A DNA stretch of 64,000 nt from Nemertoderma westbladi (GCA_032718475.1 JAUCBJ010000147.1:1-64000); one strand, 5' to 3'. Counted from the first letter of the stretch, positions 24,811 to 55,102 are shown. Numbers and translations are program-made. Notes: a model not told the origin generated them from the sequence alone.

Positions 24811-24986
24811 TTATTGCGGTGTAGGCTACTTTGTATTATTCGATTGATCGCTACTATATAATCTCTAACAACTATATTTACTTTCGGGGAAATATTAACA
24901 GTTCCTTTGGGACGTGGCGCTTTAAGTATAAAACAGAGTTATGACTTACACTAATCACAACAAGATAGCTATGGAATCTCGTAAAT
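24811..24986 (-). mobile_element. Truncated fragment of the Bel/Pao LTR at the duplication junction
   Basis: Identical to 39596-39771; breaks off at ...ATCTCGTAAAT|GTCTCATG. Confidence 0.9.
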
Positions 24987-28283: not shown

Positions 28284-29071
28284 TAATTTATTGTATTGTT
28301 CAGGATGTGGACATAAATGGGCATAATATTTCCCATTCTGTATGCCTAACTGTGCTTCTTTGCAGATTATCGTGCGTGTGTGCTGTGCAGTTTTACTGCC
28401 CCACAATGCCTAATCTAAAATCACATACCGGTACGGCAGTACGGCGGTACCCAGGTACCGCGGTGCCATGCTGCCATGCATACGGCTGTATGGATAATTC
28501 TCCATACCATAGGCTGATAGGAGTCTATTTATTACTGTATTACAGTATTAGGCCTACTGTATTAGCTGATTCTGTGATTAGGGCAACATACTGCAGTACT
28601 GACATACGCAAATCCGCTCTATAGCAGATTTTGACCCCTTCATCTGTATACAGTAATAATAAACAAAAGTCATTAGGCCTAGAACTGCCATACAGGTTAG
28701 GCCTACAGTTTTATTTTAGAAAGTAATCATCTGTTATACAGTTATATGTTATAGGCTGATAGGCCTACTATAATTAGGCAGTTAGGTACCGGTAGATTTT
28801 CCTCTAGACTTCTAGTGGCTAGAGAGGGATGCATTGTTTGATTGTGTCAAAAATCCGGAATAATAATTAAAAATAGGCCTCTATCATGGAATAGGCCTAC
28901 TCCATGCCTCTATACAATAATAATGTATTCCGGAATTATTACCAACAATAGTTTCTAGGCCTACTCCATGTCAGCCTGTACTCTACATTCTGACAATACA
29001 TACCGGTAGCAGCATCTGAGCGTAGAGTTAAAGATTTATAGCCCCTTTATAAGCATATTTATAATCGGATA

Positions 29072-32000
29072 ATGGCGCCAGAATATCCGTTTAAAGCGGA
29101 ATACGCTAAAAGCGGTAGAGCTTCTTGCAAAGGGTGCAAGGAAGGAATCGGTCAAGGAGTCCTGAGGTTGGCTATCATGGTCCAGTCGCCATTCTTCGAC
29201 GGCCGCCAGGCGAACTGGTACCATCAAAAGTGCTTCTTTAAGAAGCAGAAGCCCAAACACCACACCGTAATCGAGGGGTTTGCAAATCTCCGCTGGGATG
29301 ACCAAGAAAAAATAAAAGAGAGCATAGGAGATACGGGCGTTCCAGAACCTCAAGCGTCCACAATTAAGAAAGGCAAAGCGAAAAGTAAAACAAAGGAGGT
29401 TAAAACTGATTCCAACGGGATGGTAGTTGCGTTTCTAACAGAGTTTCATGTGGAATATTCAAAGTCAAGTCGGGCTTTATGTCGGGTGTGTGACAACCCC
29501 ATCATAAAGAAGGAGGTTAGAATGTCCAAGAAGGAAGCGGATGCGCGTTATGGGATGCTCGATGCTTGGCATCATGTCGAGTGTTTCGCGGAGAATTTAG
29601 ACGAACTCGGATTCACCTACAATATAGCGGATGTGGATGGTTTCACGGCTTTAACAGAAGACGATCGTAATAAATTGCTTTCTGTTCTGCCGTCTACAAA
29701 TAAAGTCGTAGTTGGGTCTAAACGAAAGCCAACTGTGGAAAAGGATATACCGATAGTGAAAAAACCAAAACCAGCACTTTCTGCAATGGATAAAAAGTTA
29801 AAAGAACAGAGCAGTTTATTGTGGGGTATCAAAGATGCCTTACAAGCCGCCCTTTCTGGCCCTCAGATGAAGAGTTTACTGGCCCATAATAGTCAGTATG
29901 TGCCTGTGACTGGACAGGCGGCTGACGCCTGTGTCGATATGCTCGCATTCGGACCTCTGGAGCCTTGTGGTCAGTGCACCACAGACGGTCTGGTCAGTCT
30001 GCTAGATGGGGCGGATGGGTATAAATGTCATGGGCAAATCTCAGAATGGACCAAATGTTTCTACAGGACGCAGAGTCCTGCAAGAAGATCCAACTTCTCT
30101 ATCCCCAAGGGTCTGCGTTTCTGCGAATATTTGAAGGACTTTAAGTTTAAGAAGAGAGAGCGGTTGTTCCCTGTGGGGGTTGGATTGACGACTAACGAAG
30201 CACCGGTGCGATCCTCTTCAAGCGTTCCCGCTCCCGAGACCGGGAAACCGCTACGTGGCTGCGCAATATCTATCCTGGGGAAACTCACAAAAACCAAAGC
30301 CACTGTGAAACAGTCCGTGGAGAATCTTGGAGGGCGACTTCAGGATAAAATAGACGGAAGTCTCGTGGGAATACTCTCTAGCGAAGCCGAGTTGGAGAAA
30401 ATGTCCCGCAAGATGAAAGCCGCCAAAGAGTTCGAAGTTAATATCATTTCTATCGACTTTCTGGAAGCTGTGGAAAAGAAGGAAGATGCCGAAACTGTAG
30501 CTAACCTGGTAGAGAAGCACACGATTAGCGAATGGAAGTCAGACCCCACGTCGAAAATAAAGAAGGTTGAAGTTAAGAGCTTATTAAAAAAGCAGAAGAG
30601 TAGAGAAGAGAAGATGTTTAAGAGTTCAGTGAAGTCGTTGAAGGTAACGGTGAAGGGTGGGGCTGCGGTGGACCCTGAGTCGGGACTGGAAGACAATGGA
30701 CAGGTACTGAAGGACATGAACGGGCTACACACCGCCGTGCTGGGGAAGGTAGACTTAGTACAGGGTCAAAACAGTTACTACAAACTTCAGGTGATAGAGA
30801 AGGAACGGGGAGGACCCAAGTGGAATGTGTTCCGTTCCTGGGGACGGGTTGGAACTACGATAGGCGGCTCGAGGGTCGACACTTTTGGCTCGAAACTCGA
30901 GGCCAAACAGTTCTTCCAGGAGCATTACTTAGAGAAGTCGGGTAATAATTGGGCGGATCGGGATAATTTCGTGAAGAAACCGCGGTGTTTCTTCCCGTTG
31001 GACATCGATTACTCCACGCAAGAGGATGACAACGAGTCATCTGCGCGACTACGGGACTCTGGGAGCGAGTCCAAGCTGGCAAAACCCATCCAGGACATCG
31101 TGAAAATGATATTCGATATCGAGACAATGAAGAAAACCTTGGTTGAGTTTGAGATAGACCTTGAAAAAATGCCACTGGGTAAATTGTCCAAAAAGCATAT
31201 TGAGGGCGCTTACGTTGTGCTGACGGAGTTGCAAGGGATACTCACTGACGATAACCCGGGAGGAAGACAAGTGAAACTCATCGACGCTTCCAATCGCTTC
31301 TACACGCTGATTCCGCACTCATTCGGCCTCGAGCAAATCCCCTTGTTGGACACAGAGGAATCGATAAAAGAGAAAACTGCAATGCTGGATAACCTCCTGG
31401 AGATGGAGGTCGCTTATAGTCTACTGAAAGGTACTAAGGTGGAGGCCGGCACTGACCCAATGGATGCTCATTATAATAAGTTGAAGTGCGAGATGGGAGT
31501 TGTAGATAAAGAGAGTGAAACTTTCAGTATGATCAAGGAATTCATCACCAACACTCATGCCAAGACACACTCCGGATACACGTTGGAGTTATTAGACGCT
31601 TTTGAGATTCAGCGCCAAGGCGAGGCACAGCGTTTCAAGCCGTTTAAGGACCTCCCTAATCGCAAGCTGTTGTGGCACGGCTCTCGCGTTACCAATTACG
31701 CCGGTATCCTATCGCAAGGCCTCCGTATCGCTCCTCCCGAGGCTCCATCCACCGGATACATGTTCGGTAAGGGGATCTACTTCGCCGATATGGTGTCCAA
31801 ATCGGCCAACTACTGCTCCACTTCCCCTTCCGCTAACACCGCTCTCATGTTGTTATGCGATGTAGCGCTCGGTAATATGATGGAGAAGACGCAGGCCCAT
31901 TACGTCGACAAGCTGCCCAAAGGGAAACACTCGATGAAGGGTTGTGGGAGAACCTGCCCCGATCCCAAACAGGATAGGGTCATAGACGGAGGTGTAGTCG

Positions 32001-32143
32001 TCCCCATGGGAACGTCTTTCAATACAGGTACCACGAACTCTAGTCTACTGTACAACGAGTATATTGTCTACGATGTCGGCCAAGTGTCCATGAAGTACCT
32101 CCTGAAACTAAAGTTCAACTATAAAAATTTGTACGGATTTTAA
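29072..32143 (+). CDS. PARP1: Poly(ADP-ribose) polymerase 1, single-exon CDS, copy 2
   Basis: Translation identical to 14286-17357. Confidence 0.98.
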   Translation: MAPEYPFKAEYAKSGRASCKGCKEGIGQGVLRLAIMVQSPFFDGRQANWYHQKCFFKKQKPKHHTVIEGFANLRWDDQEKIKESIGDTGVPEPQASTIKKGKAKSKTKEVKTDSNGMVVAFLTEFHVEYSKSSRALCRVCDNPIIKKEVRMSKKEADARYGMLDAWHHVECFAENLDELGFTYNIADVDGFTALTEDDRNKLLSVLPSTNKVVVGSKRKPTVEKDIPIVKKPKPALSAMDKKLKEQSSLLWGIKDALQAALSGPQMKSLLAHNSQYVPVTGQAADACVDMLAFGPLEPCGQCTTDGLVSLLDGADGYKCHGQISEWTKCFYRTQSPARRSNFSIPKGLRFCEYLKDFKFKKRERLFPVGVGLTTNEAPVRSSSSVPAPETGKPLRGCAISILGKLTKTKATVKQSVENLGGRLQDKIDGSLVGILSSEAELEKMSRKMKAAKEFEVNIISIDFLEAVEKKEDAETVANLVEKHTISEWKSDPTSKIKKVEVKSLLKKQKSREEKMFKSSVKSLKVTVKGGAAVDPESGLEDNGQVLKDMNGLHTAVLGKVDLVQGQNSYYKLQVIEKERGGPKWNVFRSWGRVGTTIGGSRVDTFGSKLEAKQFFQEHYLEKSGNNWADRDNFVKKPRCFFPLDIDYSTQEDDNESSARLRDSGSESKLAKPIQDIVKMIFDIETMKKTLVEFEIDLEKMPLGKLSKKHIEGAYVVLTELQGILTDDNPGGRQVKLIDASNRFYTLIPHSFGLEQIPLLDTEESIKEKTAMLDNLLEMEVAYSLLKGTKVEAGTDPMDAHYNKLKCEMGVVDKESETFSMIKEFITNTHAKTHSGYTLELLDAFEIQRQGEAQRFKPFKDLPNRKLLWHGSRVTNYAGILSQGLRIAPPEAPSTGYMFGKGIYFADMVSKSANYCSTSPSANTALMLLCDVALGNMMEKTQAHYVDKLPKGKHSMKGCGRTCPDPKQDRVIDGGVVVPMGTSFNTGTTNSSLLYNEYIVYDVGQVSMKYLLKLKFNYKNLYGF

Positions 32144-34607: not shown

Positions 34608-37600
34608 ATGGGAGACGAAAATTCGAAACCGATAATTAATGTGACTGTGGAATGTGAAGGAGAGAACACAGTTCTTTGTAAACCAGGTAGAGTGGTCAAT
34701 TCTACAACAGTAGCAGTGGAATTATTAATCATAACACCTTGCATCATAATACTTTACAACACCTTGCATCTCCCGCTACTAAATTTATATTCGGTTGTTT
34801 CAATAAATTTCAAAACACGGGAGTTGAACACCGCCTTGAATTGATTCCTAATGTAGGCCTAGGCCTATCATAATTTGAAAATGAATTATTAACGGTGCCG
34901 CGGAGAGGAAAAAATTCAACTTTAGAACTCAGCTATTCTTCGACAGTTTTCAGATATTGAGATTTTTCCACATTCTTTCTATAAAACATGCAGGAACCAC
35001 ATGAATGGTGCCTGAATCGTCCATCTGAACGAAACCCAATATAATGTAAAATAACCATCTGAGTATCAATAACACCAACTAATAGCGTTGGCCTATATCG
35101 CTGTTTGTTTTACAGGTGGCCCCTTATCAATAAGGGGGGAGATAAAGGTATCCGGGAAGCAGTACCGTAGAACCGACATCAGTAAGCTAACAGTAACATT
35201 ACACCAAATTACACGAATAACATTCACCGACCCTCCCAGCGGTGTCAAGTACGGGGCCAATGGATACCATATAACCAAGGGAATTCTCCAGTTAACAGAG
35301 GCGGGTAAATGGGACCCTCACAACACAACTATTGGCTACCTGGTTGTCTTGGAAAACGTTACAATGCCTAGTCACGAGGATTCTAATTCTAGAATTAGGT
35401 AAGTATGACAATTAAATGACTTACTGAAGTTAATAGCCTACCATATTATATAAAGTTACGAACTGTTGTACATAACAATGATTACCATAAGAAAATATTA
35501 TAATTCAGTAAATTAGTGAAAAATAATACATATTTAGGGCCCTTGCCCTACAATACAATAAGTACTTCGGCCTAATTATATTTGATTTAATGACAAGCTG
35601 CTAATATTAAAAAATCTTAACAAACTGTAGATGCAAGCGCAACAAATTATATCGGAATCTAATAGACCAGTGTTCAGGTGCCATCTGTCAGCTGATCGGA
35701 TCTGAATCTACTGGATCAGTGTTCAGGTGCCATCTGTCAGCTGATCGGATCTTAATCTACTGGATCAGTGTTCAGGTGCCATCTGTCAGCTGATCGGATC
35801 TGAATCTACTGGATCAGTGTTCAGGTGCCATCTGTCAGTTGATCGGATCGGAATCTACTGGATCAGTGTTCAGGTGCCATCTGTCAGCTGATCGGATCTG
35901 AATCTACTGGATCAGTGTTCAGGTGCCATCTGTCAGCTGATCGGATCTGAATCTACTGGATCAGTGTTCAGGTGCCATCTGTCAGTTGATCGGATCGGAA
36001 TCTACTGGATCAGTGTTCAGGTGCCACCTGTCAGCTGATCGGATCTGAATCTACTGGATCAGTGTTCAGGTGCCATCTGTCAGCTGATCGGATCTGAATA
36101 TACTGGGTCAGTGTTCAGGTGCCATCTGTCAGCTGATATGATCTGAATCTACTGGATCAGTGTTCAGGTGCCATCTGTCAGCTGATCGGATCTGAATCTA
36201 CTGGATCAGTGTTCAGGTGTCAGCTGATCGGATCGGAATCTACTGGATCAGTGTTCAGGTGCCATCTGTCAGCTGATCGGTTCTGAAGCTATTGGATCAG
36301 TGTTTAGGTGCCATCTGTCAGATGATCGGATCTGAATCTACTGGATCAGTGTTCAGGTGCCACCTGTCAGCTGATCGGATCTGAATCTACTGGATCAGTG
36401 TTCAGGTGCCATCTGTCAGCTGATCGGATCTGAATCTACTGGATCAGTTTTCAGGTGCCATCTGTCAGCTGATCGGATCTGAATCTACTGGATCAGAGTT
36501 CAGGTGTCATCTGTCAGCGGATCGGATCTGAATCTACTGGATCAGTGTTCAGGTGCCATCTGTCAGCTGATAGGATCTGAATCTACTGGATCAGTGTTCA
36601 GGTGCCATCTGTCAGCTGATAGGATCTGAATCTACTGGATCAGTGTTCAGGTGCCATCTGTCAGCTGATCGGATCTGAATCTACTGGATCAGTGTTCAGG
36701 TGCCATCTGTCAGCTGATCGGATCTGAATCTACTGGATCAGTGTTCAGGTGCCATCTGTCAGCTGATAGGATCTGAATCTACATGATCAGTGTTCAGGTG
36801 CCATCTGTCAGCTGCTCGGATCTGAATCTACTGGATGAGTGTTCAGGTGTCAGCTGATCGGATCTGAATCTACTGGATCAGTGTTAAGGTGTCTGCTGAT
36901 CGGATCGGAATCCACTGGATCAATGTTCTGGTGCCATCTGTCAGCTGATCGGATCTGAATCTACTGGATCAGTGTTTAGGTGCCATCTGTCAGCTGATCG
37001 GATCTGAATCTACTGGATCAGTGTTCAGGTGCCATCTGTCAGCTGATCGGATCTGAATCTACTGGATCAGTGTTCAGGTGCCATCTGTCAGTTGATCGGA
37101 TCGGAATCTACTGGATCAGTGTTCAGGTGCCATCTGTCAGTTGATCGGATCGGAATCTACTGGATCAGTGTTCAGGTGCCACCTGTCAGCTGATCGGATC
37201 TGAATCTACTGGATCAGTGTTCAGGTGCCACCTGTCAGCTGATCGGATCTGAATCTACTGGATCAGTGTTCAGGTGCCATCTGTCAGCTGATCGGATCTG
37301 AATCTACTGGATCAGTTTTCAGGTGCCATCTGTCAGCTGATCGGATCTGAATCTACTTGATCAGTGTTCAGGTGCCATCTGTCAGCTGATCGGATCTGAA
37401 TCTACTGGATCAGTGTTCAGGTGCCATCTGTCAGCTGATAGGATCTGAATCTACTGGATCAGTGTTCAGGTGCCATCTGTCAGCTGATAGGATCTGAATC
37501 TACTGGATCAGTGTTCAGGTGCCATCTGTCAGCTGATCGGATCTGAATCTACTGGATCAGTGTTCAGGTGCCATCTGTCAGCTGATCGGATCTGAATCTA

Positions 37601-40600
37601 CTGGATCAGTGTTCAGGTGCCATCTGTCAGCTGATAGGATCTGAATCTACTGGATCAGTGTTCAGGTGCCATCTGTCAGCTGCTCGGATCTGAATCTACT
37701 GGATGAGTGTTCAGGTGTCAGCTGATCGGATCTGAATCTACTGGATCAGTGTTCAGGTGTCAGCTGATCGGATCGGAATCCACTGGATCAATGTTCAGGT
37801 GCCATCTGTCAGCTGATCGGATCTGAATCTACTGGATCAGTGTTCAGGTGCCATCTGTCAGCTGATAGGATCTGAATCTACTGGATCAGTGTTCAGGTGC
37901 CATCTGTCAGCTGATAGGATCTGAATCTACTGGATCAGTGTTCAGGTGCCATCTGTCAGCTGATCGGATCTGAATCTACTGGATCAGTGTTCAGGTGCCA
38001 TCTGTCAGCTGATCGGATCTGAATCTACTGGATCAGTGTTCAGGTGCCATCTGTCAGCTGATAGGATCTGAATCTACTGGATCAGTGTTCAGGTGCCATC
38101 TGTCAGCTGCTCGGATCTGAATCTACTGGATGAGTGTTCAGGTGTCAGCTGATCGGATCTGAATCTACTGGATCAGTGTTCAGGTGTCAGCTGATCGGAT
38201 CGGAATCCACTGGATCAATGTTCAGGTGCCATCTGTCAGCTGATCGGATCTGAATCTACTGGATCAGTGTTCAGGTGCCATCTGTCAGCTGATCGGATCT
38301 GAATCTACTGGATCAGTGTTCAGGTGCCATCTGTCAGCTGATCGGATCTGACTCTACTGGATCAGTGTTCAGGTGCCATCTGTCAGCGGATAGGATCTGC
38401 ATCTACTGGATCAGTGTTCAGGTGCCATCTGTCAGCTGATCGGATCTGAATCTACTGGATCAGCGTTCAGGTACCATCTGTCAGCTGATCGGATCTGAAT
38501 CTACTGGAGCAGTGTTCAGGTACCATCTGTCAGCTGATAGGATCTGAATCTACTGGATCAGTGTTCAGGTGTCAGCTGATCGGATCTGAATCTACTGTAT
38601 CAGTGTTCAGGTACCATCTGTCAGCTGATCGGATCTGAATCTACTGGATCAGTGTTCAGGTGCCATTTGTCGGCTGATCGGATCTGAATCTACTCGATCA
38701 GTGTTCAGGTGCCATCTGTCAGCTGATCGGTATATTTTACCCCAACCAAGAGGGGTTTCTCAAGAAGTTAAAACTAGATGAGCGACAATAGTACGGAATT
38801 CCCAATTGAGGCATGTGTTGGGGGTCGGTGGGGGGAGGCATGGAATTCTATATAGAGATCTATATAGCATTCCATGGGGGGAGGCTTACTCTTCTTCACA
38901 TCATTGGGAAGTACATGTAGCATCGCAAACTTGCGCAAATCACGTCCTGCTTCTTAATAATGTGGTCTGAATAACGCATCAACCCATTATTAACAAACAG
39001 AAAGTGATAGATGCAAGTGTTAAAGCTTTTGCGGCAAAAATGTGTCGTTTTTGTGCAATGGGCGAACTACTCTAAACTTGGCATTGTCTTGAGGGACTGG
39101 GGAATTTATAAATTTACGCCCTCTAGCGTTTATTTTGGTACAGAGCTCTGGTCAGCAACTCCAAGCAAAAAACAGCTGCTCTAGTGATGAGCTCGCCAGC
39201 TATTGGTCAGTAATTTATCTTTATCCCGTAAGCTCTGTGTTATTTTCCGGCCAATCAGCACAATCCACATCCTTAGAACCCCTGGACCCTGGTTTTCCCT
39301 AGAAAAGATGTCGCAATCCAGCAAATTCTTCAGTTTCTGATACTCTGACATTCTGAATTTGCCCGAGACCATCTGTGGCCAGACTGCCAGAGTGTTATGA
39401 AATCGTTCATTGCTGATGTCAGTTTTCCATTTTTTGGAAAATCGAGTCTTCTAACTGACTATCTGATATCTGTCGATGAGTCAATTTGTCTGTCGGTCTG
39501 TCTGTACGTCAAAATAAATATATTATTTCGCACAAAATAGCTAAATATTTCTCTATGGGAGTTTTCGTCGTCGGGAATTTCATTTCCGATGTCGATTATT
39601 GCGGTGTAGGCTACTTTGTATTATTCGATTGATCGCTACTATATAATCTCTAACAACTATATTTACTTTCGGGGAAATATTAACAGTTCCTTTGGGACGT
39701 GGCGCTTTAAGTATAAAACAGAGTTATGACTTACACTAATCACAACAAGATAGCTATGGAATCTCGTAAATAGCGCATTCTTTAGGAGATGCTTTATTAA
39801 CCTTCACACGACTTCACACTACTTCACACTAATTCACACTAATTTGCCGACCGTCACTGATTTTGATCATATATAAGGAGGATTGCAACTGACACACGTA
39901 GGGATTATGAAATAGCATTTAATTCACACAAAAACCACTATTTTTTGAGTCACAGTTGCTACCGGTAGACCCTTCCTCCGCTTACCTCAGTAATCAAGAA
40001 AGTCGAGGGGTTTACGGTTATTTATCAGTATTCTCCAAATATAACATCCATTAATATAAACAGCAATTAACACAATATAAAACAGCATTAAAACAGTGCG
40101 GTGAACAGTCAGTATGTGTTCATGAAGTTTTAGTACAGATGACAAGTGTATGACCGTGATTATTGTGGTGTGTCCAGTTTGTTAATAGATTTACGTCCTC
40201 ATAACTCCAGCCATCAGATTTCCTTGGGCTAAAGTCTGAAACGTCCGTACTTAGTACAGAATTCTGAGAGGAATCTAATTCTCAGAAAAACGATAACTGC
40301 GTATGCGCTAGTTTCCTCAGGTAGGTCTCTACTGGCATAACTGGGAAGATTGCTCTGATTGGCTGAATAAGCTCAAACAAAGAGATCTCCACGTACACAA
40401 AGAATCAGCTGACAGATTTCGTCATCTTGGTTCTAATTTCTGTCCGACGCGTAGTTGTACAATTTTAGGGCTATTTTAGAGTATTCTGCGCATTGCGTAA
40501 AAATGACTTGTTATGTCCGCAAAAGCTTTTACACCGCTCCCAGAAAATGGGATTTAAGTCTATAAAATATAAAAAATCACAGTTTCTAAAATACAAAAAT

Positions 40601-43600
40601 ACTCTAAACTATTAGTCCTTCTTTCATGAACGGCGTTTATGAAGTTTTTTGAGACTAGTAAGAGTCTTTTTCTCTTTGGGGCGAGCCACTTTACTAGGAG
40701 GGCTATAACTCCTGGGGGAAGGGTGCAATACGATTGCATCAGAAGGTTTTGGATTACGGTCGGTGTATCCGCCGGTCGAGGTACCCGGTTGATCGATATC
40801 AACATCGGTGGAACGAGGGCGAACAACCTTTAGAGCTCGTTTCAGGATGGCAGCTCTTACTGGTCCTTGATGGGTCGTTTGCACGACAGCGGTAGGTTGA
40901 CCGTGTGTAGTGAGAAATTTCCTCGGTTTGATTGTTCTCTCTAATTCGCGTTCTCTGGCTTTATATTCATATGGTCGTCTATGAACTTCTTGTAACTCCT
41001 GATGTGAGTTTATGAACAAGTCACCGTATTCTTTCTTCCTCAAACAATACATATAAATTCCAATGGACTAATGGATTTATTAAATCCATCGAGATTATAT
41101 GGAGGTATTACGTCCTTTTCTATTCTTGAAACATTATAAGGTTTTCTGAATGAGTTTACTTTAACCAATTGATCTAAATGTTTCTGTAGTTGTTCTAGTT
41201 CAACAAGATCGAGGGGATTTATCAATGGTTGAAACTTTAAACTGTGTGTAGGATCTTCCGGTTTCACCATATAATATTGAGTTAAATTGACATAATAGGG
41301 GTGATCTTTGATCCCGTAAAATGAGTTAGGTAAAGGTCTAGCGCGTAGGTTGACCTCGTGTACCATACGACGGACAAGATCCGCTCGATTGTCCGGAGGT
41401 TCAATGAGTATACCGTCGACACGAGCACCCTCGATTGGTGGACGTTGTAACATAGGAGCGTCAGCGATAAGATCTCTAGATCTTAAGTTGATATCAACTG
41501 GTTGGGGTTGTGCTGTGGCGAAGAGTTTATCTCCGAAATGGGGAACCATCGAAGGATGAATGATGGTTTTGGAATAGAGATCAGTCATAAGGATTTGAGC
41601 TTCCGTCTGGGCTAAAGCTGCTTCTTCTCTCTCATCCATTTCGATATGTTTCTCCTCGAGCTGATTCTCCTCCGCTTGTCGTTGAAAGCGTTCGTCTAAG
41701 AACTCTTGTAGAGAGTATGTTCGTCCAAGTTCGATATCTTCCTCAAGATTCTGGATTTCCTGATCGAACTGGGGTAAAGCCAATTCTTTTACAGCTTGGA
41801 CTTGTTGTTGCAATTTACGTTTGTCTAAACAATAGTAGGTTCCTTTTCTGATCTTTTGCCGAATAGCGTCTAGCGCGTTTCGTACAACGCTTTCCTCCAC
41901 CTTGGTGACAGGTTGTATCGGAGTTAAAACCAGGACGATTATACGGGTTGAACGGAGATATTAGATGTCCGCGTCCCAATCCGGCTAGGTAGGAGGGGCG
42001 AATATCTAGAGAGCCCACAACCGGAGTCCACTGACTAATTGTTCGGGTAACACTAGGTCTTTGAACAATGAGTACAACTCAGGAGGATCCGTCATACTAT
42101 TAGGATCAAGAGTCTGAGGTCGCACCAGGGAATGAGGAGGTCTGACCGAGTATTCTGGAACTCTGATCATAGGTTTATTTAAGGATCGTTTGAGTCGAGT
42201 GAGCGTAGGTGATAGGTCGAACAAGTTACGCTCAAAACTCCCGTAAGTATGGTGAGTAAAACTGTGTTTAGCGCAACGTCTCCGCGGATGTTTATGTCTT
42301 TCCATTTGTTGATTGGGTCTAGGGCATTCATCGCAGTAATACCAAAGACGCACATCTTGTAAGGGAAACGCTGGTGATCTTTCTCCAGTTTTACAATATT
42401 CCTCCATCTGTTCATAGCTATCCGGTACAACAGGTAGCGGTTGATCGGCGGTAAGATACATCATAGTAAAATAGAGTCGTTTGAGTTCTACCATAGGGTT
42501 ATGATGTATACCTTGAGGATATCGAGTTTCTAGATTTTGTTGACTAGCTACATTGAGATAAGTTTCTCTCAAGAATTCTAAATATTCGTTGAAGTCACTA
42601 CGTTTATCCGGTTCTTCAACATCTTCTCTTTCGAGTCGGGTTCAAATAGAATTTTCATGTTCAATTCTCAGTTTATCATTCCGACTCCGCTGGGCATGAT
42701 ATTTAAATAGAATCATTTCCCTTTCGGTGTCCACATCGTCTGTATCGTGTAAATTGATAGGATGACCAGTAGTTAAGAAGTCCATATACGTACCATTACG
42801 ATGCGTATAGCGAGCGGTGAATTTTCTATAGTCCAATTTACGCTTGAGCTGTTTCTTTGACATTGGCGGTTCGATATAACAGCCATCGTCTTCCGTCGTG
42901 TGTTGACTAGCGTCGCCACTTATCAAACTATCAACAAACACTTGCAGTGGTAGGGTATATCGCTCCCTGATACCAAGATCATCTTCTATCAACTCAGTCA
43001 TAGCTGCTATATGAGTTTATCGATATTATTGTTAATAATAATAAGGCTAGTGGGTGTCATTGCCTCCCCTCTATGCCCCCGGACAGCCCTGAGATCCTCA
43101 GCGCTGATGTACTGTAGTCGCTGTGCCTCTCGCCAACGTAGTAGCTACACAACGACAACAATAACCAGCGCGAGTCACTACACTGTCCGTCCCAAGGGCT
43201 TGGATATACTGGAGGTACTTGCTACAGATGCAGGGTAACTTTCACAACTGTGACTCTCTACTGTAAACACACTTTAGTAGTAACATTCACTTATAAATAC
43301 ACAAATTCCACATTCCTGCCACAATTTGTACAAATTAGGGCCATTTGTCCTTTAGTCAAATGCCTTCCAGAATGCCACGTTATTATTATGTATCCCTAGA
43401 TACTAGCAAGGTGCTATTTATTCCGCATGCTATTCAATGGGGCAAGCTTTCTATTGTTCTTTTAACTCACTTCTAATTCCAGCGTGGTTGTTACTATGGT
43501 GACATTATGCAAAGCTAGTGGTAGAATTAGGGTATTTCTCATGCATACAGATCTGGGATGCTATTTAATAGTGACTCTTTAATTGTCAATATTCCCCTTA

Positions 43601-46600
43601 TACATGATTTTATGAATTTTATCGGCTATCGTCTGTACACTGGAGATTCTCTCACACTGATATACTTAATAGGGTGAATCTCCGCTCCCATGATCTATTA
43701 ATTAACGGAATTTTGGGAATGTTTATAAATTGTATAAAATGACAATTTGTTAAATTCATGAGAGGATATGAATTTAAAATTTTATTCCCGTGAATTTTAT
43801 TATTTGATATTAAAATAGACACAATTTTATTCCAGAACATGTCTGGGAACTAGGATCCTTAATTCCAGAATTTTGTCTTTTAAGAGTATCGGTAAGTACT
43901 ACGATATCTTAATCGACTAAAATTTTAGAGGATCTAAAGGTTTAACAGATTTGTTTATAATTTTTAGATTTAATTTGTTAGCATTTCCTCTATTTTAACA
44001 TTTGTTATAACAAACGTTGTAAATATTTATCAAATATTTAATATTTAGGATGGGCACCGATTTATTCCAGAACATGTCTGGGGACGTTAACCACTGATTC
44101 TAGAACTTTGTCGTTCAAGTATATTGGTGGGTGCCACGATATCTTAATCGACTAGAATTTCTGATGGTCAAAGTGTTTAACAGATTTATTTTGTGTTTCA
44201 ACGCTACTGTTAAATGGACATCTTTCTACTATATATATTATTTAAGATACGGTATGAGAGCAATATTGCAAGAAGCAATGTCAGTGAGAAGAGGCAAGTC
44301 ATTTCCAAGGTCTACCCAGAGCTTGGTTTAGCCGAGAAACGAGGATCTGAACTTTGCATTCCTAATACTCTACTTACCAATAATACTTAAGTATAGTAGG
44401 GGCGGTATATTGTACTGTAATAAGTACTGACATTTCATCTTACTGTAGTCACGTATTTATAGTAGGATACGGACAGTAAGGAAAGAGAAAATGAAATTAT
44501 TTCTCGAAGTTAAACAAAATATATTATACTAAGTAATTAAGTAATAAAACATGAATATATTGCACTAATCTACTGAATAATCATTAAAATATTATTCTAC
44601 TAAATAAAATTAAAGAAAACGATTATAATAATAGAAATTACATAGTAATACATACATAAATATAAAAATAAAAATAAAATAATGTAATCACACACCCACT
44701 CCGAACGTTATTACATTGGGGAGTCCCTAGATGTTTGTTGGATTAGGGAGGTGGTCGTGGGAAGAGTCTCTTGCCTTCCATAGTTACCGGACAACTCTCG
44801 GTCTCTTTCCAGTAAACATAAACGACCAACCGGGCGATTAAGTTGTTGCGTTTCGAACACAATTCCAAGTTTCTTAAAGTTACGTCGCATGACGACGAGT
44901 TCTACCGATCGCACTAAACCATCATCGGATATATGAGTCTCGATGATACGACCTGTCTGCCACCTCTTATGTGGAAGATCTGCGGGAGCATGGCTACAGG
45001 TTTCTTTTGTAGGAAATGTGCGGGTGTTAGCGCTTCTAGGGAGTCGGGACTAGATGAGACTGGCATAAGCGGTCTCTCGTTGAGATAGGCGGTGATTTCT
45101 TCCATTAACGTCCGCAAAGGTTCGTCGGTGAGATACGTGCGGCATGGCACTATAAAGTGAAATGCGGTCTTTACGCTACGTATGAGTCTCTCCCAACTTC
45201 CTCCCCACCAAGGGGCGTCGGCGGCGTTGAAGGTCCAGCTAGATGCTGTTACTCTTAGCTGATCGTCCACCTGTCTTTGGTTCCAACCCCTTACGTAAGC
45301 TTATTAGTTCGTTATTGGCGCCAATGAAATTAGTTCCGTTGTCAGATCTCATAGTGTTGCTAGTCCCAAAACGAGCGATTTGTCGGCGTAAACTCAGTAT
45401 GAAGCTGTTGGTAGATAGATCGTTCACCATATCTAGATGGATTGCTCTACAAGTCATACAGACAAAGATGACGCACCATCGCTTGACTATAGTCCTAGCA
45501 CGATATACTTCAATAGGGCCAAATAAATCCACACCAGTATTAGTAAAGGGTGGTTCATAACAGCTTACTCTTTCCCTAGGTAATTCTGCCTCTCGCTGTG
45601 TTAAAGGCCTACTAAATGCTTTCCTACAGGGTATACAGTTCCTAAGAACTTGGTTTAGAGCTCTACGGGGCTTATGGAAATAATAGCGAGTTCGAATTTC
45701 GCTAAGAACTCGTTCTCTACCAGCGTGGTAAATTTTACTATGAACATCTACAATCATCTTGATTTGTATTTCAAGATTTATAATGAGTATGGGAAACTTA
45801 GTGTCAAAGGATAATGGAGCATTGGTTAATCTCCCTCCGACACGTATTAACAAATCTATCATTGTGCTAGAGAAACGATCCCTTAAGCGCATCTGTGGAT
45901 TTCTTAACAACAGGAAATACTTATCGGAATCCTCGTAACATTGCAGGAGTCTCAGTATCTGCTTGTTGGTATCATCATGTTCTTGGTAACTGATCTTCTC
46001 AGTCAGAAACCTATCAGGCACTCTATAAGTGGGAAGGTCTTTAGTAGCATGGACCTTTTCAGCTACTACTGGAGCGGTATCATTAGCGCTCTTCGTCCTG
46101 GAATAGTGATGATGGAAACATCTTTTCAGATACACAATGGCCTTGCAGAGCCGATTCGAGGAGCTATAATGATCTATCGCTCTTTGTAGGAGAGGAGAGA
46201 GTCCTCGCGAGATGTCTGGTGTTCCAGATTTCCAGTCTCTTTCCCTGATTTCTATAACGGATTTATTTATAGTTCGGGTAACATCCATGGGTGAGTTTAG
46301 ATCCACAGTGGCGTCACCGGCGGCGTGTAGTACAGACAGATCTATTGCTGGCTTAAACAGCTTTGATTTACTCGTCCTGGTTTTTGGTTTGACTTTCTCC
46401 GCTCCCTTAGCTTGTCTGATCTCCGCCATGGTGAGATGAGGGGGCCATTCCTCCTCTTCTTTACCCAGGAAGTCGGGTCCACCTAACCAGTCTGGAGTAT
46501 CTATCAATTCTTGAGGAGTTGCTCCTCTGGAAGCGATGTCAGCTGGATTATTCGTCCTAGGGCAATGTCTTGATTGATCTATATTAGAGCGACTGAGTAT

Positions 46601-49600
46601 AATGGCTACTCTGTTGGTAACAAAGATGCTGAACTGACAGACTTCATTAGTTATATACTCCAGAACGAGTAAAGCATCAGTCCAATAGACAGTTTTCTCT
46701 AGTGGATAGTCGATCTGTTCCGTTACATTCTGGCTGATGGGTGTAGCGTATAGAGCCGCCTTTAACTCCGCTCTGGGAACTCGTAGTTTGTTGTTTATTA
46801 GGGCCTTAGAGGCGACTAATGAAACCTTAATTCCATTGGGAGTTTCAACCCTCAGGTAGGCTACTATACCTATTCCAATATCGCTGGCGTATCCAAAAAC
46901 ATGGAGTTGATAGGAATACGTGGGGAGAACGTGACCGAAATACGAGCGGGAAATCTTAAAGTTCTCGATAGATGGTAAAGAATTTTCCCATTTCATCCAC
47001 TTCTTTAGCAGTTCTCCCTTGAGTGGATCATCCCACGAGTGGTTTTCAAGCCACATTTGTTGTACTAAGCTCCGAGCAACTAGTATGACTGGGCTAATGA
47101 ATCCCAACGGATCGAAATAAGTGCTCAGGATACTTAGACAAATCCGTTTAGTTCTAACTGGATTATCTCATTGCTTCAATTGAAAGAATAGAATATCTCT
47201 CTCCATGTCCCATTTTAATCCAAGAGTCTTGGTTTCTGGAAGATTGTCCTTAATGAGGTCAAGGTCTTTAACACCTCGGTCTTCTACTGGGATCGATTCC
47301 AGGAACTCACGGGAGTTACTAGTGAATTTGGTTAGGCGAAATCCACCTCGTTGTAAGCACTCTACCATTCCCTTGGCAACATCGATTGCTTCTTCCACCG
47401 ATGGGAGAGACTTTAAATTGTCGTCCATGTAAATATCCCGTTTGATGTTGTCGATAACCGCTTTAGAGAAGGCGTCTCTATTGTCATCGGCAGTGGTACG
47501 CACTACCGAACAAGCGTTCGAGGGGCTCGAGATGATCCCGAAAGCCTGGATTGTCATCCAGTACTTTACCGGTTTTCAGTTGAGGTCTCTTTCAGACCAC
47601 CACAGAAATCGTAGGCTGTCTCGATCCCTAGCTAACGCTTTAACTTGTAGAAACATGCCTTCAATGTCCAAAGCGAAGGCGATCGAATATTGCCGCAGTC
47701 GTAGTAATATTCCCAACAAAGATTGGAGTAAGTTGGGTCCCGGCAACAGTTCCGAATTTAGGGATTGTCCCATATAAAGGGCAGAGCCGTCAAACACTAC
47801 CCGGACTTCGTTTGGTTTACCGGGCTTGGGAACGTAATGATGTGTCAAATAATACGTTCTCTCCGTTATGGATGTTTCTTCCGGAACTCGCTCCGCGTAT
47901 CCCTTGTCTATAAACTTCTTTAATTGAGTTTTATACATTTCCTTGGCTCGATCGTTGGCCGTCAAACGCCGATGCAGTTGGGCGATTATTTTTTCCGCTA
48001 AAGGTCGGTTATTCACGAAACTGGGTTCTCTCTGTCTGAACGGCAGACCAATTCCATAACGACCTTCATCTTTCAGATAACGGGTGGTCGTTTCCTGAAT
48101 CTGCTTGGCTCTCTCTTCCTCGACGGATAACGCTTTGTCGTAGGAATTAGGCTCTACGGCTTCTTGAGTAAAGAATCGTACGGCGTATTCATCGCATACC
48201 TTACTATTGTACCGCTCTACCACTTCACTTAGTTCGTCGTCATAAGTCAATTGTTCGCTATTTTGACTGATAAAGTTACACAAGTTAACTTGGTTTAACC
48301 AAGTTTGATTCTCAGTGAGGAGTTCAATGGTATTTTCCTCGTCATATAAATTATGTATATCATCGTTATCTGAGGAGTATAAGGGTTTCCTCAGCTGGGA
48401 TTTCTTCTTCACTTATATCTTCCTCCCATTCATTTACCTGATGGACTTGCTCGCTCGGGAGTCTTTCTTGTAAAGTGCTGTGGGAAGGTCCAGTGAAGTA
48501 CCAACCTACTCTTGTTCTTCCCGCGTAAGTCTGGCGTGGTCGCGGTCGAGCAGGCCATTTTTCTATTGTCTCAAGCGCCTTGTGCGCATTTTGGCCGAGT
48601 AATATCTGTACCCCTGGACAGTCGGTACTGAATCTAGGTATTTTGTATTGCTGGGTAAAATGATCTTCATCCCAGTTGTAAGGCTCCACTTGGCTCCACT
48701 TGGCCAAAGTTCTTTATCGCCACCATCTTAACTGACCTTACACTATTTTCACCTAGTTCATCCTGGGGAGTGGACAACGAACCCACGTAGTAATCAGTTG
48801 CTACCGTGGATTTCCAAACTTGCATAATTCCGGAAAGGTTCAGTTTGGTTCGGAACTTTGGTTGACCAACAAAGATATCTTCGGCTAGGTCTTTGTCTAT
48901 AAAGGTGCCTGTACTGCCAGAGTCAAGGAGGGCATTCATTATTAAGCTCTTCCCTCATTCCATGTACCCTCAGTTGCACCACGGGAAACTCTCGGATACC
49001 GACAGATGATGTTGGCGATTTCCATGAGAGCTGTCAATCCGGAATAGACAGCCAGGGTTCTTCTCCCTCCGTTTCGGTCTCATATGTAAGTGCTCGATAT
49101 ACGGTTGTGTTGATCATATAACAGGATTCATTTTCGTCTGAAAATTCATCAGTGTAGAATCCTTCCATCTCCAAACTGTGGTCAGTATCGTATTGTTCAA
49201 TCGTGTAGTTCGGGCTCACTTACCTGACTCGTCCGGGTCTTATCAAATTCGGTGTGCAACAAAATATGATGTTTCGCGCCGCACTTAGCACACTTCGCGT
49301 CTGAGTAACAGGTTCTTCGTTGATGTGCTCGCCTGAGGCAGTTATAGAGCACAACCATTTATCCCACATGACATCACGTCTATCCTTTAATGTTTTCTTT
49401 AAGAATTCTTCACACCCACTCAAGCGATGTTGCCCATCGCACAATACACACTTAGGTTTGATGTTACTTACCTTAACCTGCGTCGTATTTTGTACGCTAG
49501 CTCTTTCTTCGGGCTTCCTTCCATGAATTCTCTTAGGAGACGTAGTGGGAGTTGTTACCTGTTCTCTCTTGCCACTGGTTCGAGACTTAGATTTACTTAC

Positions 49601-52600
49601 ATCTTTCCTGATTTTGTTTACGTAATAAGATCTCTCGGTGTCCTTGCCACTATTCTCGTCATAAGACGTTTGGCTTTCGTAATCATCTGTATAATACACT
49701 GGTGTTACCTTTCTCCTAGTAACGGGTTTTTCACTTACCTTACTTTCCGGTGTCTTCTCTCTAGACTGTTTTAGGAGCTGAAATCTTACCTCTCCGTTTA
49801 AGAACGACATGAGGTCAGCCATGGTGGGGTCTCTATGTTGTTGGTCCATCAGATAAAGAACCTTTTTGTCCCAGCGAGTACCTACTCCACCCTTTGGCAA
49901 AGTTGATGCTATGGCTCCTACAACCATAGAACTCTGGTATTCCTGAGACTTACCCAACCAGTCTAGATGTCTACAGATCTCCTGAATCTCATCAGAAAAC
50001 TCTATAATCCCGCTGCTAAGAAACTTTTGGGGCGCTACTAATTTCGCATACAGATATCTAGCTATGTTAGTCATATTACCATACCTAATGTTTAGCGTAT
50101 CCCAAACTTGTCTCAATCCGTCGGGATGTCCAATAAACTTTAACGCCATTAACTTGGGAAGTCCTTCCAAGCACTCGATGAGGAATCGTAGTTTCTCTCC
50201 GCTGGATAGTACGGAGTTCTGTATGTTATCTTTGTAATATTCATTAAAAGGTAACCATTTCATCTCATCTCCATTAAACTTGACGACCTCTCCCACCTTT
50301 ACCGCTTGACGGGCTTCCATTCTAGCCATCTGACGTGTAAAGCTTTCTTGAGCCATCGTATTATATAATATCGAATTATCGGTATATAAATTTCTCGGAT
50401 TATTATCAGATCTGTATGGGATATCATTATCAACAGGCTTATTAATACCCTTAATAGGGTTTACTATCGGAGTTTCTACTTCGCTAGCAGTATAGATGCG
50501 TGTAGGCTCCACACCTTGCGCATGAAATACTTCAGACCTAACGGGCTGACACATTGTTACAGAGGGTGGTGTTATATCCATTTGTATATTCACTAATTTA
50601 TCGCGCTCGAGAGCGATATTTTGCTGTACTTCTTGCAGCTCTAACCTACTCTCTCTCACTGTTCCCTTTAACAGCTGAACAGTCCCTTCCAATTCTCGGA
50701 CTTGTTTGAAAGACCTGACCTTATTGTCTTCTAGTTGTCCGAGTAACTGCTCCATCCCCCGTCGTCCCTCGTCCATCCACTCAACCACGGAGGCGGGAGT
50801 CGCCAACGTCGTAGCTGGATAGCACATCGGGACGACGGGAGACAATCTATTTATTATTTCTTGCTCGGCATCCATGACAGTCTGAGATTCTGGCAGTTGT
50901 CTACTGGGCACAGGTAGTTTGGTACTGTGTAAAGGGAATTTAGAGTTAGGTTCTTGGAGCAAAGGGATCTCTATCAAGGGAGTGGGTTCGCTAACAGGTC
51001 TAATTATTTCTGGCTCATCTACTATAGTAGGTAGTCTTTCTACTCTTATAATTTGGGCTGTTGGCTCTCGATTACTTAAGTCTACACTAGCTAGCTCCCT
51101 TCTCACCGCAGGGGGTAAGTTAGGCAACTTATTTAGCTATGTTATCCTATTACCATACCTGATGTTTAGCGTATCCCAAACTTGTCTCAATCCGTCGGGA
51201 TGTCCAATAAACTTTAACGCCATTAACTTGGGAGGTCCTTCCAAGCACTCGATGAGGAATCGTAGTTTCTCTCCGCTGGATAGTATGGAGTTCTGTATGT
51301 TATTTTTGTAATATTCATTAAAAGGTAACCATTTCATCTCATCTCCATTGAACTTGATGACCTCTCCCACCTTTAGCGCTTGATGGGCTTCCGTTCTAGC
51401 CATCTGATGTGTAAAACTTTCTTGAGCCATCGTATTATTTAATATCGAATTATCGGTATATAAATTTCTCGGATTATTATCACATCTGTATGGGATATCA
51501 TTATCAACAGGCTTATTAATACCCTTAATAGGGTTTACTATCGGAGTTTCTACTTTGCTAGCAGTATAGATGCGTGTAGGCTCCACACCTTGCGCATGAA
51601 ATACTTTAGACCTAACGGGCTGACACATTGTTACAGAGGGTGGTGTTATACCCATTTGTATTCACTAATTTATCGCGCTCGAGAGCGATATTTTGCTGTA
51701 CTTCTTGCAGCTCTAACCTACTCTCTCTCACTGTTCCCTTTAACAGCTGAACAGTCCCTTCCAATTCTCAGACTTGTTTGGAAGACCTGACCTTATTGTC
51801 TTCTAGTTGTCCGAGTAACTGCTCCATCCCCCGTCGTCCCTCGTCCATCCACTCAACCACGGAGGTGGGAGTCACCAACGTCGTAGCTGGATAGCACATC
51901 GGGACGACGGGAGACAATCTATTTATTATTTCTTGCTCGGCAGTTGTCTACTGGGCACAGGTAGTTTGGTACTGTGTAAAGGGAATTTAGAGTTAGGTTC
52001 TTGGAGCAAAGGGATCTCTATCAAGGGAGTGGGTTCGCTAACAGGTCTAATTATTTCTGGCTCATCTACTATAGTAGGTAGTCTTTCTACTCTTATAATT
52101 TGGGCTGTTGGCTCTCGATTACTTAAGTCTACACTAGCTAGCTCCCTTCTCACTGCAGGGGGTATACTGCCTACACACTAAATTACTTTCAGGAAAGTAC
52201 TGTACTCTAAACCCTAAATTAGGTACAAGTACGTATACAACATATAAATAGCAGTTAAATATACGTGAACAGCCAAAAGAACCACGGTATCTGCTGGAGT
52301 GACCGGAGCACAAAATCACCAGTCTGTCCTACGCCAAGCAGTCCTGAAGTAGTACCGGGGTTAATTTAACTATAACAGTATGCATAACAAGTATAATTAC
52401 TGTAAGGAATGAACTTGGGGAGATGTAGGTTGCAAATACTTGCATAAACTCTGAATAATAAATATTACGCTACCCGTACAGACTATTCAAACAAAACACA
52501 GACCAAATGCTGGCAGACTACTGTCAAGCCTAAATAAACTACAGTATATGCAATCTCCGAAATGGTTAGTTAGTAAGTGTTCTAACTACGTAGTACGACT

Positions 52601-55102
52601 TATTCTTTCGTGGGGGATTTACCTTACAACCACTGGATGCCTCCACCTTCCTAACTAGCACTTTATCGGACAGACACTCTACATACACTGCCATCGCCTC
52701 AGACCTAACAACGGTTAGACAACAATCTGGCCTACAAATTATTTATACAATCTGAGCAGGCTTACACGCCTTCTGCTCAATATTACACTTACCGATAAAT
52801 ATAACTGACAGAAATAAGTAAACTATACAAAGGAGTAAGGGGTGATCAATCCCTAATCCCCTAACAGCCTACAATATACAATATTTCACAATCAAATAAT
52901 ACTGGGTAAGTACCGGTTCGGGTTACTAGGCCTACAGTCTACTGTCCGACCAGTACGTTTCGGTTTTATCGCCTACTGAGCAATAAAGAGTCTAAAATCT
53001 ATTAATGTTCGTGCTTTTAGACCTTTAGCAGTTTAACCTGCCAATTTTAAATGTCCTTTTAATTATGAATCGACTTTGCTCGTACCAATTACCTGGTGTA
53101 CTGAATTTACATCTGCCAAAGCCAGTCCGTGCGTGGCATATGACCCACGGTGTGGGAGACTGGATTCGGGTTCCAGAGGAAGTTATTGCGATGTGTAGGC
53201 TACTTTGTATTATTCGATTGATCGCTACTATATAATCTCTGACAACTATATTTACTTTCGGGGAAATATTAACAGTTCCTTTGGGACGTGGCACTTTAAG
53301 TATAAAACAGAGTTATGACTTACACTAATCACAACTAGATGGCTATGGAATCTCGTAAATAGCGCATTCTTTAGGAGATGCTTTATTAACCTTCACACGA
53401 CTTCACACTAATTTACACTAATTCACAGTAATTTGCCGACCGTCACTGATTTTGATCATATATAAGGAGGATTGCAACTGACACACGTAGGGATTATGAA
53501 ATAGCATTTAATTCACACAAAAACCACTATAATTTGAGTCACAGTTGCTACCGGTAGACCCTTCCTCCGCTTACCTCAGTAATCAAGAAAGTCGAGGGGT
53601 TTACGGTTATTTATCAGTATTCTCCAAATATAACATCCATTAATATAAACAGCAATTAACACAATATAAAACAGCATTAAAACAGTGCGGTGAACAGTCA
53701 GTATGTGTTCATGAAGTTTTAGTACAGATGACAAGTGTATGACAGTGATTATTGTGGTGTGTCCAGTTTGTTAATAGATTTACGTCCTTATAACTCCAGC
53801 CATCAGATGTTCTTGGGCCAAAGTCTGAAACGTCTCTACTTAGTACAGAATTCTGAGAGGAATCTAATTCTCAGAAAAACGATAACTGCGTATGCGCTAG
53901 TTTCCTCAGGTAGGTCTCTATTGGCATAACTGGGAAGATTGCTCTGATTGGCTGAATAAGCTCAAACAAAGAGATCTCCACGTACACAAAGAATCAGCTG
54001 ACAGATTTCGTCATCTTGGTTCTAATTTCTGTCCGACGCGTAGTTGAACAATTTTAGGGCTATTTTAGAGTATTCTGCGCATTGCGTAAAAATGACTTGT
54101 TATGTCCGCAAAAGCTTTTACAAGTTCCACAAAATATGAAAACTTACAACATAAATTTTGTAACATGAACATTGTTGCATTCTGACAGACAGACCAAAAA
54201 GAGACAGACGGACAGACAGTCATAACTCGAAAAGTAAAAGAGATCTCTCTAAACCGTTTTCAGATTTGAAATCCTCATTAAATTCTACTCTCGGTGAAAT
54301 TAAAAAAAAATATCGAAAATTTTAACCCCCCCCCCCCCCCCCCCCTTAAATATATAATGATACTGTATCCAACACGTAGATAATAAATATTCCGTAGACA
54401 TTAATATTAATATACACTATTAATAGACAATTTCTGTAGGCCTACATATTGTTTGATTGTATTATTAAAATTCTATTATTATCCAGATATGTTTTACACA
54501 CAGAGGCCTGTTGTAGCCGCCAGCAACACAGTCGCAAGGGTCCACCTATTACAGTTAGCACCCCCATTAACGTACAGTTCCAGCAACCCCCAAGTATACT
54601 GGTGGACCAATCAGAAAGCGACACAGAATCCTCAGACCTCCCAGTCTACAAGGCGAAATACCTGCAGATATCTGGGTTCCCTGCATATCTGTGTCCTGGA
54701 ATACGAGTGTCTGTGCTAATCCGAGATGATGCACCAAAGGACCGCAAGATGGCGCGAGACGTAGATACAAATAAAGAACGCAAGATGGCGCCTCTAGTCC
54801 GGAGCGTGAATCTTGTTCAGAAGAGAAAATACCGCGGTGTGAGTGAGGGAACATTCAGGGAAAAAGAGAAATTATCACTGAAATCGAAAGGGGTAGCTCT
54901 TCTAGGTAACCACTCGTTTGGGGAACTTATAAGCGGATGGCGTCTGGATTTGCCTTTGAATTTAACTAGCACCTTCTCCGACATCGAACACATGTTGGAT
55001 ATATCCTATGCAATAGTAATTACAACGTTATTGGATGAAATCATTAATATCCCGGTTTATATGTTTTATGGAAGCAGTGCTAATACGGGTGGTTCTTCGT
55101 AG
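34608..55102 (+). CDS. Spliced alpha-arrestin/arrestin-domain-like protein, ~325 aa; coding exons 34608-34686, 35116-35398, 54487-55102
   Basis: GT-AG boundaries with matching phases (1, then 2); 79+283+616=978 nt open frame; motifs PG..IRGEIKV, MPSHEDSNSRIRYVLHTEA, VSTPINV, LDLPLNLTSTF...LDISYAIVI...NIPVYM resemble arrestin N/C domains. Confidence 0.68.
35655..38730. repeat. 49-bp satellite array, copy 2 (intronic)
   Basis: Same variant order as 20870-23945. Confidence 0.97.
39596..40533 (-). repeat. 3' LTR
   Basis: Direct repeat of 53183-54122 (roughly 20 differences by eye); minus strand starts TGTAAAAGC preceded by purine-rich GGGAGCGG (PPT). Confidence 0.9.
40624..43001 (-). pseudogene. 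Extra ORF of unknown function inside the Bel/Pao element (~790 codons; 1 in-frame stop, ~3 frameshifts)
   Basis: ORFs 42642-43001 and 42006-42572 are in the same frame across one TGA; 41815-42018, 41040-41900 and 40624-41052 overlap successively; coding-like composition ending ~90 bp before the PPT. Confidence 0.7.
44711..49000 (-). pseudogene. pol: Bel/Pao pro-pol (protease, RT, RNase H, integrase), multiple frameshifts/stops
   Basis: Fragments 48667-48939, 48366-48707, 47576-48412, 47168-47557, 45239-47107, 44914-45270, 44711-44914 (RPVGRLCLLE end motif). Confidence 0.93.
49034..52163 (-). pseudogene. gag: Bel/Pao gag with ~1.05-kb internal tandem duplication
   Basis: KFNGDEMKWLPF...EKLRFLIECLEG...WDTLNIRYGN (DUF1759-like), CVLCDGQHRLSGC knuckle; ~50058-51116 repeated at ~51134-52163. 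Confidence 0.88.
53183..54122 (-). repeat. 5' LTR
   Basis: Direct repeat of 39596-40533, ends ...GCTTTTACA on plus strand. Confidence 0.9.

Follow-up and report, generated by a model that had tools for sequence, protein, structure and literature searches.

A large orphan accessory gene in the envelope position of a Bel/Pao retrotransposon from Nemertoderma westbladi

Extra genes of Bel/Pao and other LTR elements

The ICTV profile describes the Belpaoviridae as elements of 4.2-10 kb whose genes number one to three (gag, pol and an env-like gene) and whose replication is poorly understood (PMC8742986). In four sources, the third genes of Bel/Pao elements are env-like, being F-like in roo and a Chuviridae-like gB in mosquito elements, with nematode Tas, Cer7 and Atlas as further carriers (PMC8742986, PMC13524379, PMC554778, PMC9094657). 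Excerpts from three papers mention env alone as a Bel/Pao extra gene (PMC3118150, PMC554778, PMC2774666), and a passage of another mentions overlapping ORFs in C. elegans elements (PMC9094657). No non-env third gene of a Bel/Pao element is described in the open-access literature found. In Gypsy-type elements, by contrast, extra genes other than env are well documented (PMC5408684, PMC7264820, bioRxiv 10.1101/2025.03.14.642691), and CERV of the C. elegans Ty3/gypsy element Cer1 appears in the available part of its account as an orphan nuclear protein that is required for genomic RNA export and has no homolog outside its host group (PMC10309623).

How does the locus studied here compare with these systems? 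The window, which is the whole 64,000-nt stretch of DNA analysed, contains on its minus strand an LTR element (54122-39604; 14,519 nt, ~14.5 kb) with an extra ORF of ~790 codons, hereafter ORF3, at 40624-43001 on the same strand. Like env-bearing Bel/Pao elements, it shows an LTR-gag-pol layout, PR-RT-RH-IN order, the Pfam markers, LTRs of 0.2-1.2 kb and a sense-oriented third gene ahead of the 3' LTR. Unlike the Bel/Pao envs, the ORF3 product has no anchor, signal segment, disulfide set or viral glycoprotein match, and its gene lies behind a 1.7-kb spacer. The element also exceeds the ICTV range of 4.2-10 kb, at 14.5 kb or, minus a gag duplicate, ~13.4 kb (PMC8742986).

Judged by the excerpted description, CERV resembles the ORF3 product as a large orphan extra protein of an animal LTR element with a candidate NLS, a Cys-rich finger and a coiled-coil segment, but it has 517 aa, is encoded by five exons sharing frame with gag, belongs to a Gypsy element and has been tested experimentally, whereas a role for ORF3 is proposed here from its anatomy (PMC10309623). 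The ORF3s of bdelloid Juno and Vesta are likewise sense, non-env genes in the env position (GDSL esterase, DEDDy exonuclease, coiled-coil), although in the passages available these elements are not Bel/Pao and their ORF3s are short or known enzymes, in contrast to the ~790 codons without a Pfam match found here (PMC5408684). Grande GENE23 and the plant aORF-3R genes also occupy a long 3' internal region, and GENE23 is nuclear with its own promoter, but the excerpts place them in plant Gypsy elements and in antisense orientation (PMC7264820). The sORF1 and sORF2 of the Drosophila MDG1 group are also non-env accessory ORFs of animal LTR elements that evolve under purifying selection; they differ, in the text available, by their 70-110 aa, their position upstream of gag and the FAST-like nature of sORF2, whereas ORF3 is large, hydrophilic and downstream of pol (bioRxiv 10.1101/2025.03.14.642691).

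The analysis below confirms ORF3 as a real, conserved orphan accessory gene whose function we infer. That a very abundant family has such a gene shows that accessory genes are acquired in the Bel/Pao group too, just as in Gypsy elements and retroviruses, and ORF3 offers a handle on unspliced-RNA export or silencing evasion by animal LTR elements; with many copies present, its evolution is directly measurable. The case is also a warning that third ORFs are not to be called 'env' by position. An extra ORF has reportedly been found in C. elegans Cer7.

The host element and its extra reading frame

The Bel/Pao identity proposed in the original prediction is borne out by the sequence of the LTRs, gene order, Pfam markers and pol homologs. 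The 5' LTR (53193-54122, minus strand) starts with TG and has a 3' end fuzzy by ~10 nt; comparison with it delimits the 3' LTR (39604-40533, minus strand), the two agreeing at 912 of 930 bases (98%) with 9 transitions and 9 transversions. Their length of ~930 nt is inside the Bel/Pao range, and each contains a 10-nt repeat in four copies. The gag gene (49223-51136, minus strand; DUF1759, E=1.2e-10) encodes Cys/His knuckles interrupted near 49345 by a frameshift, across which a triple Cys/His box can be read in a three-frame reading; a triple box in Gag is a feature named for Bel/Pao in the text available of PMC554778. The broken pol (44714-49222, minus strand) holds a protease (DSG), a reverse transcriptase (YMDD), a Peptidase_A17/RNase H region, an integrase and DUF5641, with Pfam E-values of 1.7e-35 for Peptidase_A17, 2e-7 for Integrase_H2C2, 1.7e-6 for DUF5641 and, below the cut-off, 0.0023 for Asp_protease_2. 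Pfam returned no RT domain on the broken pol pieces, although the YMDD motif is readable. The resulting order of DUF1759, Asp_protease_2, YMDD, Peptidase_A17, Integrase_H2C2 and DUF5641 corresponds to gag followed by pol as PR-RT-RH-IN. Among 44 pol homologs, 39 carry PF05380 (the Pao peptidase family). The nearest relatives are 25-41% identical, from which an undescribed Bel/Pao lineage is plausible, and a search of metagenome contigs with pol gave no matching locus.

Other structural marks are sparse. An 8-nt purine-rich tract, GGGAGCGG (40534-40541, minus strand), abuts the 3' LTR and contains one pyrimidine, as compared with a Bel/Pao polypurine tract of ~10 nt. No 18-nt primer-binding site for tRNA-Arg or tRNA-Gly was identified and no TGG directly follows the LTR; neither a target-site duplication of 5-6 nt at the element ends, nor a tRNA gene within the 64-kb window, nor an Rfam match in 39500-54200 was found. 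The 5' part of gag is present as a tandem duplicate (51130-52164, minus strand; DUF1759, E=1.7e-5) that is 95% identical to 50055-51117 over 1063 columns. This 1.07-kb duplication (50055-52164) is thus more diverged than the LTR pair.

The distance from the end of pol to the 3' LTR, put at ~4.1 kb in the original prediction, measures 4177 nt. Within it, coordinates, strand and motifs proved to be as first described: the main frame of ORF3 runs from an ATG at 43001 to 41043 on the minus strand (653 codons) with 4 stops, at 42644, 42008, 41987 and 41963, as against 37-51 stops in the remaining five frames of the same stretch and a mean of 31 (minimum 19) in the best frame of 2000 shuffles. A last piece in a different frame (40627-41067, minus strand) encodes 147 residues that are basic (net charge +17), Pro/Ser/Thr-rich and end in KKLHKRRS. 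Codon-position composition is similar to that of gag and pol, and codon usage of ORF3 correlates with that of gag and pol at 0.43-0.47, compared with 0.62 between gag and pol.

In this copy ORF3 is interrupted by one stop (42644) and by frameshifts near 42027, 41950 and 41075-41020. The rationale for counting a single nonsense change is that a stop-free frame (42078-41815) spans the clustered stops at 42008, 41987 and 41963 and that copies vary in length near 42027; the three most likely mark an out-of-frame stretch between two frameshifts. The ~790 joined codons first proposed stand as a total span of 791, of which ~25 residues around the cluster are therefore probably not real. The reading frame between ~41075 and 41020 is uncertain, so that the basic tail is joined to the main frame by inference, and a fall in summed contig depth of ~tenfold or more over 40901-41234 makes this join the weakest part of the model. 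By eye, ORF3 has 4-5 breaks per 791 codons and gag-pol 9-10 per 2140, a difference that is not significant (p 0.55-1.0) and agrees with the claim that both had decayed about equally.

Presence across the family and selection

Contigs of public DNA runs from one organism (4 runs from 3 studies) were compared with 40400-45400. All 30 bins of this segment are covered in all four runs, by 29,740, 18,420, 9,185 and 369 contig pieces that are mostly 90-99% alike. Summed depth is not equal to copy number, but so many distinct variants among the contigs imply many copies. No single contig covers the whole element, and linkage to pol elsewhere therefore depends on overlapping short pieces. The share of pieces continuing into unlike flanks is 0, 0, 0 and 0.1 in the four runs, and no joint among the 15 listed of 102 removes the whole segment. 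These observations confirm that ORF3 belongs to the family and refute a one-off nested insertion.

Could ORF3 nevertheless be a passenger, that is, a captured host gene or the gene of a nested element, whose conservation serves itself or the host? Gene capture by LTR elements is on record in PMC5408684, the 1.7-kb spacer between pol and ORF3 would suit such an origin, and a host paralogue could be missed, given that 0 of 3 host proteins were matched exactly in the protein collection. Against this, ORF3 has no terminal repeats or target duplication around it, the contigs stay within like sequence, no joint among those listed (15 of 102) drops the whole segment, and selection acts among the element copies; we consider this origin decidedly unlikely.

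The evidence for selection comes from 53 distinct single-site differences listed in ORF3, of which 47 were kept after 6 in frame-doubtful stretches had been dropped. Synonymous changes make up 27 of the 47, compared with 30% expected (p=7e-5), for a rough omega of 0.31 that is below one, as had been predicted for a functional gene; the figure is approximate, since these differences are the best-supported subset (40 of 1,199; 40 of 157) rather than aligned copies, and they include this copy's own neutral decay. Read in the two shifted frames, the same differences give omega of 1.2-1.6. By half, the N-terminal part is less constrained (13 of 26 synonymous) than the C-terminal part (14 of 20). 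ORF3 is thus under purifying selection. The 12 length differences with the best support (from a total of 95) all lie outside ORF3 and pol (taking ORF3 by itself, p=4e-4); 11 of them lie in the spacer, the AT-richness of which may inflate the contrast with ORF3.

In three runs, 98-99% of contig depth lacks the stop at 42644. Between 40990 and 42700 just two length differences pass a 35% threshold; they lie near 42027 and 41073, each coinciding with a break of this copy. The first accounts for 38% of depth in one run and for 0.4% and 0% in others, so part of the family may share the break, and in two runs 13 and 8 contigs, respectively, have loose ends at this point. Deletions inside ORF3 make up 13 of the 15 listed joints (of 102), representing ~9 distinct events at no more than a few percent of depth each, which is the expectation for a product that can be supplied in trans; together with the fall in depth over 40901-41234, they argue that not every copy in the family is intact. 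These deletions, together with the 4-5 breaks, are what a neutral relic or compositional accident would predict, yet 4 stops stand against a shuffle minimum of 19, the synonymous excess is significant, and decay does not exceed that of pol. Such an explanation is largely refuted already, and we give it almost no credence. We regard ORF3, with high confidence, as a functional, non-env accessory gene.

The ORF3 product and its possible role

Homology was sought with the main frame of ORF3, its stops read through as X. A word-index search of a 5.8-billion collection scored 7,997 candidates of 359-1143 aa and 1,180 of 30-358 aa with 0 matches; phmmer against 1.84 billion representatives gave 0 at E<=0.001, and metagenome and viral contigs held 0 loci for ORF3. 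The best PDB sequence hit had E=1, and the four natural ORF3 pieces found nothing below E=0.17 in Pfam or E=0.09 in PHROGs. Neither gag, nor pol, nor the rest of the window is similar to ORF3, and an env or another element's ORF, a match with which would have spoken against the original prediction, did not appear in the sequence searches. By these searches the product is an orphan without a detected relative.

The sequence nonetheless has recognizable parts. An NLS-like basic motif, KKQLKRK, occupies residues 49-55 (42837-42857, minus strand), with a putative nuclear function, and a second NLS-like motif lies at the end of the basic tail. A C-x2-C-x16-C-x2-H motif at residues 223-246 (42264-42335, minus strand) is predicted to form a single zinc site; it arises in 0.045% of 20,000 shuffles, a rate for a pattern chosen after sighting, and 0 of its 4 ligand codons are among the listed copy differences. 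The Cys/His cluster noted at the outset is therefore present, but the 'HH' that closed it differs in most other copies. An acidic, Q/E-rich helical segment at residues 367-476 (41574-41903, minus strand; net charge -10 in residues 401-450) is modelled as four helices with pLDDT ~50-80, the sole part with moderate confidence. Single-sequence fold models are otherwise poor, with a mean pLDDT of 37 for ORF3 and 41 for its Cys/His half. The best VIA-align match, Z 7.8, falls on residues 365-428, which form a generic three-helix stretch, and none reaches Z>=8; every TM-score from a viral Foldseek search with the pLDDT-37 model was <=0.12.

As predicted, hydropathy reveals neither a membrane helix nor a signal peptide. 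The best Kyte-Doolittle 19-mer scores 1.32 in the main frame (in a partly out-of-frame stretch), 0.19 in the last piece and 0.48 in the alternative frame, and by hydropathy no hydrophobic run precedes residue 19 at the N-terminus. With Cys content at 0.8%, the sequence sets the product apart from the known envs. An envelope or fusogen that has diverged strongly, or a part of one that obtains signal peptide and anchor from another exon, would fit the env position, the R-x-K-R site at residues 269-272 and the four N-x-S/T sequons, and the top viral fold match of the model is paramyxovirus F0 (E=2.3e-4). That match carries no weight, however, because its TM-score is 0.06 and its rmsd 40 A with a model of mean pLDDT 37. 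The basic site is not followed by a hydrophobic fusion peptide, and the known Bel/Pao envs, which the excerpts describe as F-like, gB-like or phlebovirus G-like, have anchors and disulfides (PMC13524379, PMC9094657). An envelope origin is therefore very unlikely.

What might such a protein do? As the likeliest of the readings considered, we hypothesize, tentatively and by analogy with CERV and Rev, that it is a soluble nuclear trans-acting regulator of the element's own RNA. The ORF3 product would enter the nucleus through its basic motifs, bind zinc at one C2-CH site and oligomerise through the acidic helices, and it would aid export or accumulation of the genomic RNA, which is long and resembles an intron, in the way that CERV serves Cer1 and Rev serves lentiviruses. 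The NLS-like motifs, Cys motif, candidate coiled coil and want of an outside homolog parallel the anatomy of CERV. Library-wide sequence searches and the fold search, the latter with poor models, revealed no link to CERV, Rev or another regulator, and charged proteins often contain basic motifs and leucine patterns.

An anti-silencing or counter-defence factor, which would bind element DNA or a host chromatin or small-RNA protein and hold the family in a de-repressed state, would account equally well for a soluble protein with a zinc motif and a basic tail. In favour of this, the abundance of the family is very high, orphan status is in line with fast arms-race evolution, and VANC21 of the DNA transposon VANDAL21 provides a precedent in the available text of PMC8616336. 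On the other hand, no homology was found, the element contains no cognate short tandem target motif beyond the 10-nt four-copy LTR repeat, and copy differences show constraint rather than an amino-acid excess; this role seems to us somewhat unlikely. A cytoplasmic scaffold, RNA chaperone or transport adaptor associated with Gag or particles would draw on the modelled acidic helical segment, on a predicted disordered basic tail that could bind RNA and on the gag-like composition. The two NLS-like motifs, the lack of similarity to gag, pol or the rest of the window, and the absence of any late-domain motif in the ORF3 product speak against it, and we judge it unlikely.

ORF3 would have to be expressed from its own message, since it starts 1.7 kb behind the pol stop. 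The intervening spacer (43002-44710, minus strand; ~1.7 kb) is non-coding, with stops in all frames, and AT-rich in 44700-43400, GC being 25-37% in 300-nt bins from 44900 to 43401. It contains a 157-nt direct repeat pair (43801-43956 and 44035-44191; 76% alike), the sole repeat within the pol-to-LTR segment. The ORF3 message could be spliced from a 5'-leader donor to an acceptor at 43261 or arise from an internal promoter in the spacer. Candidate signals on the minus strand are a TATA box (44461) and splice donor (44377) in 44372-44461, a branch point and acceptor at 43261-43277 and a further donor at 52792 in the 5' leader; each of these occurs at chance frequency (TATAAA, 3 seen vs 2.6 expected; GTAAGT, 1 vs 0.71; branch point with acceptor, 1 vs 0.39-0.55). 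The 260-nt leader (43260-43002) is ATG-poor, with 1 ATG vs 4.3 expected, and that one sits at 43059-43060, where other copies differ. A sigma-70 promoter scan, a bacterial model irrelevant to a eukaryote, gave chance-level results. Towards the 3' end of gag (49954-49224, minus strand) there is a cluster of five donor-like GGTAAG[T/A] sites, where 1.3 would be expected across all of gag-pol (nominal p=0.011); these might permit a spliced Gag-ORF3 fusion resembling that of CERV, or they may stem from codon use. An antisense stop-free stretch of 94 codons with a hydrophobic run (42954-43238, plus strand) overlaps the ORF3 start and is probably an ATT-rich repeat by-product.

More speculatively, and with slightly less assurance than for the RNA-level nuclear role, a Bel/Pao lineage may have independently turned into a 'complex' retroelement, in which a new family of large zinc-binding nuclear regulators replaces env and, translated from a separate message that is spliced or internally promoted, drives genomic RNA export or defeats host silencing, which would explain the very high abundance. 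Were this true, Belpaoviridae would have in ORF3 their first Rev/Tas-like regulator, and it would represent a protein family absent from current databases.

The rest of the window

The element overlaps the end of a near-perfect ~14.5-kb tandem duplication (10532-39771; 100% over 2967 nt and 99.97% over 11,489 nt), which is either a very recent event or an assembly artefact. It ends at 39771 inside the 3' LTR, leaving a 176-nt LTR piece at 24811-24986. A 60-nt stretch present at 39017-39076 and 24232-24291 (plus strand) is 77% complementary to the LTR start and may be an oppositely oriented LTR from a related family, and 49-nt satellite arrays of 64 copies each lie at 20866-23945 and 35651-38730. 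Two identical intronless ORFs of 1033 codons (14256-17357 and 29042-32143, plus strand) are, from their motifs, presumably PARP1-like; further intronless ORFs on the minus strand at 57082-58917 and 62708-63136 we take to be VPS33-like and ATP synthase coupling factor 6-like, respectively, and together these suggest an intron-poor animal genome. A tandem array of 24-nt units at 5038-5807 is open in several frames, and a long palindrome at 61218-61574 (83% over 361 nt) is MITE-like. Two overlapping ORF pieces lie at 1624-2291 on the minus strand, the first of which we assume, as an impression, to be CARD/death-fold-like.
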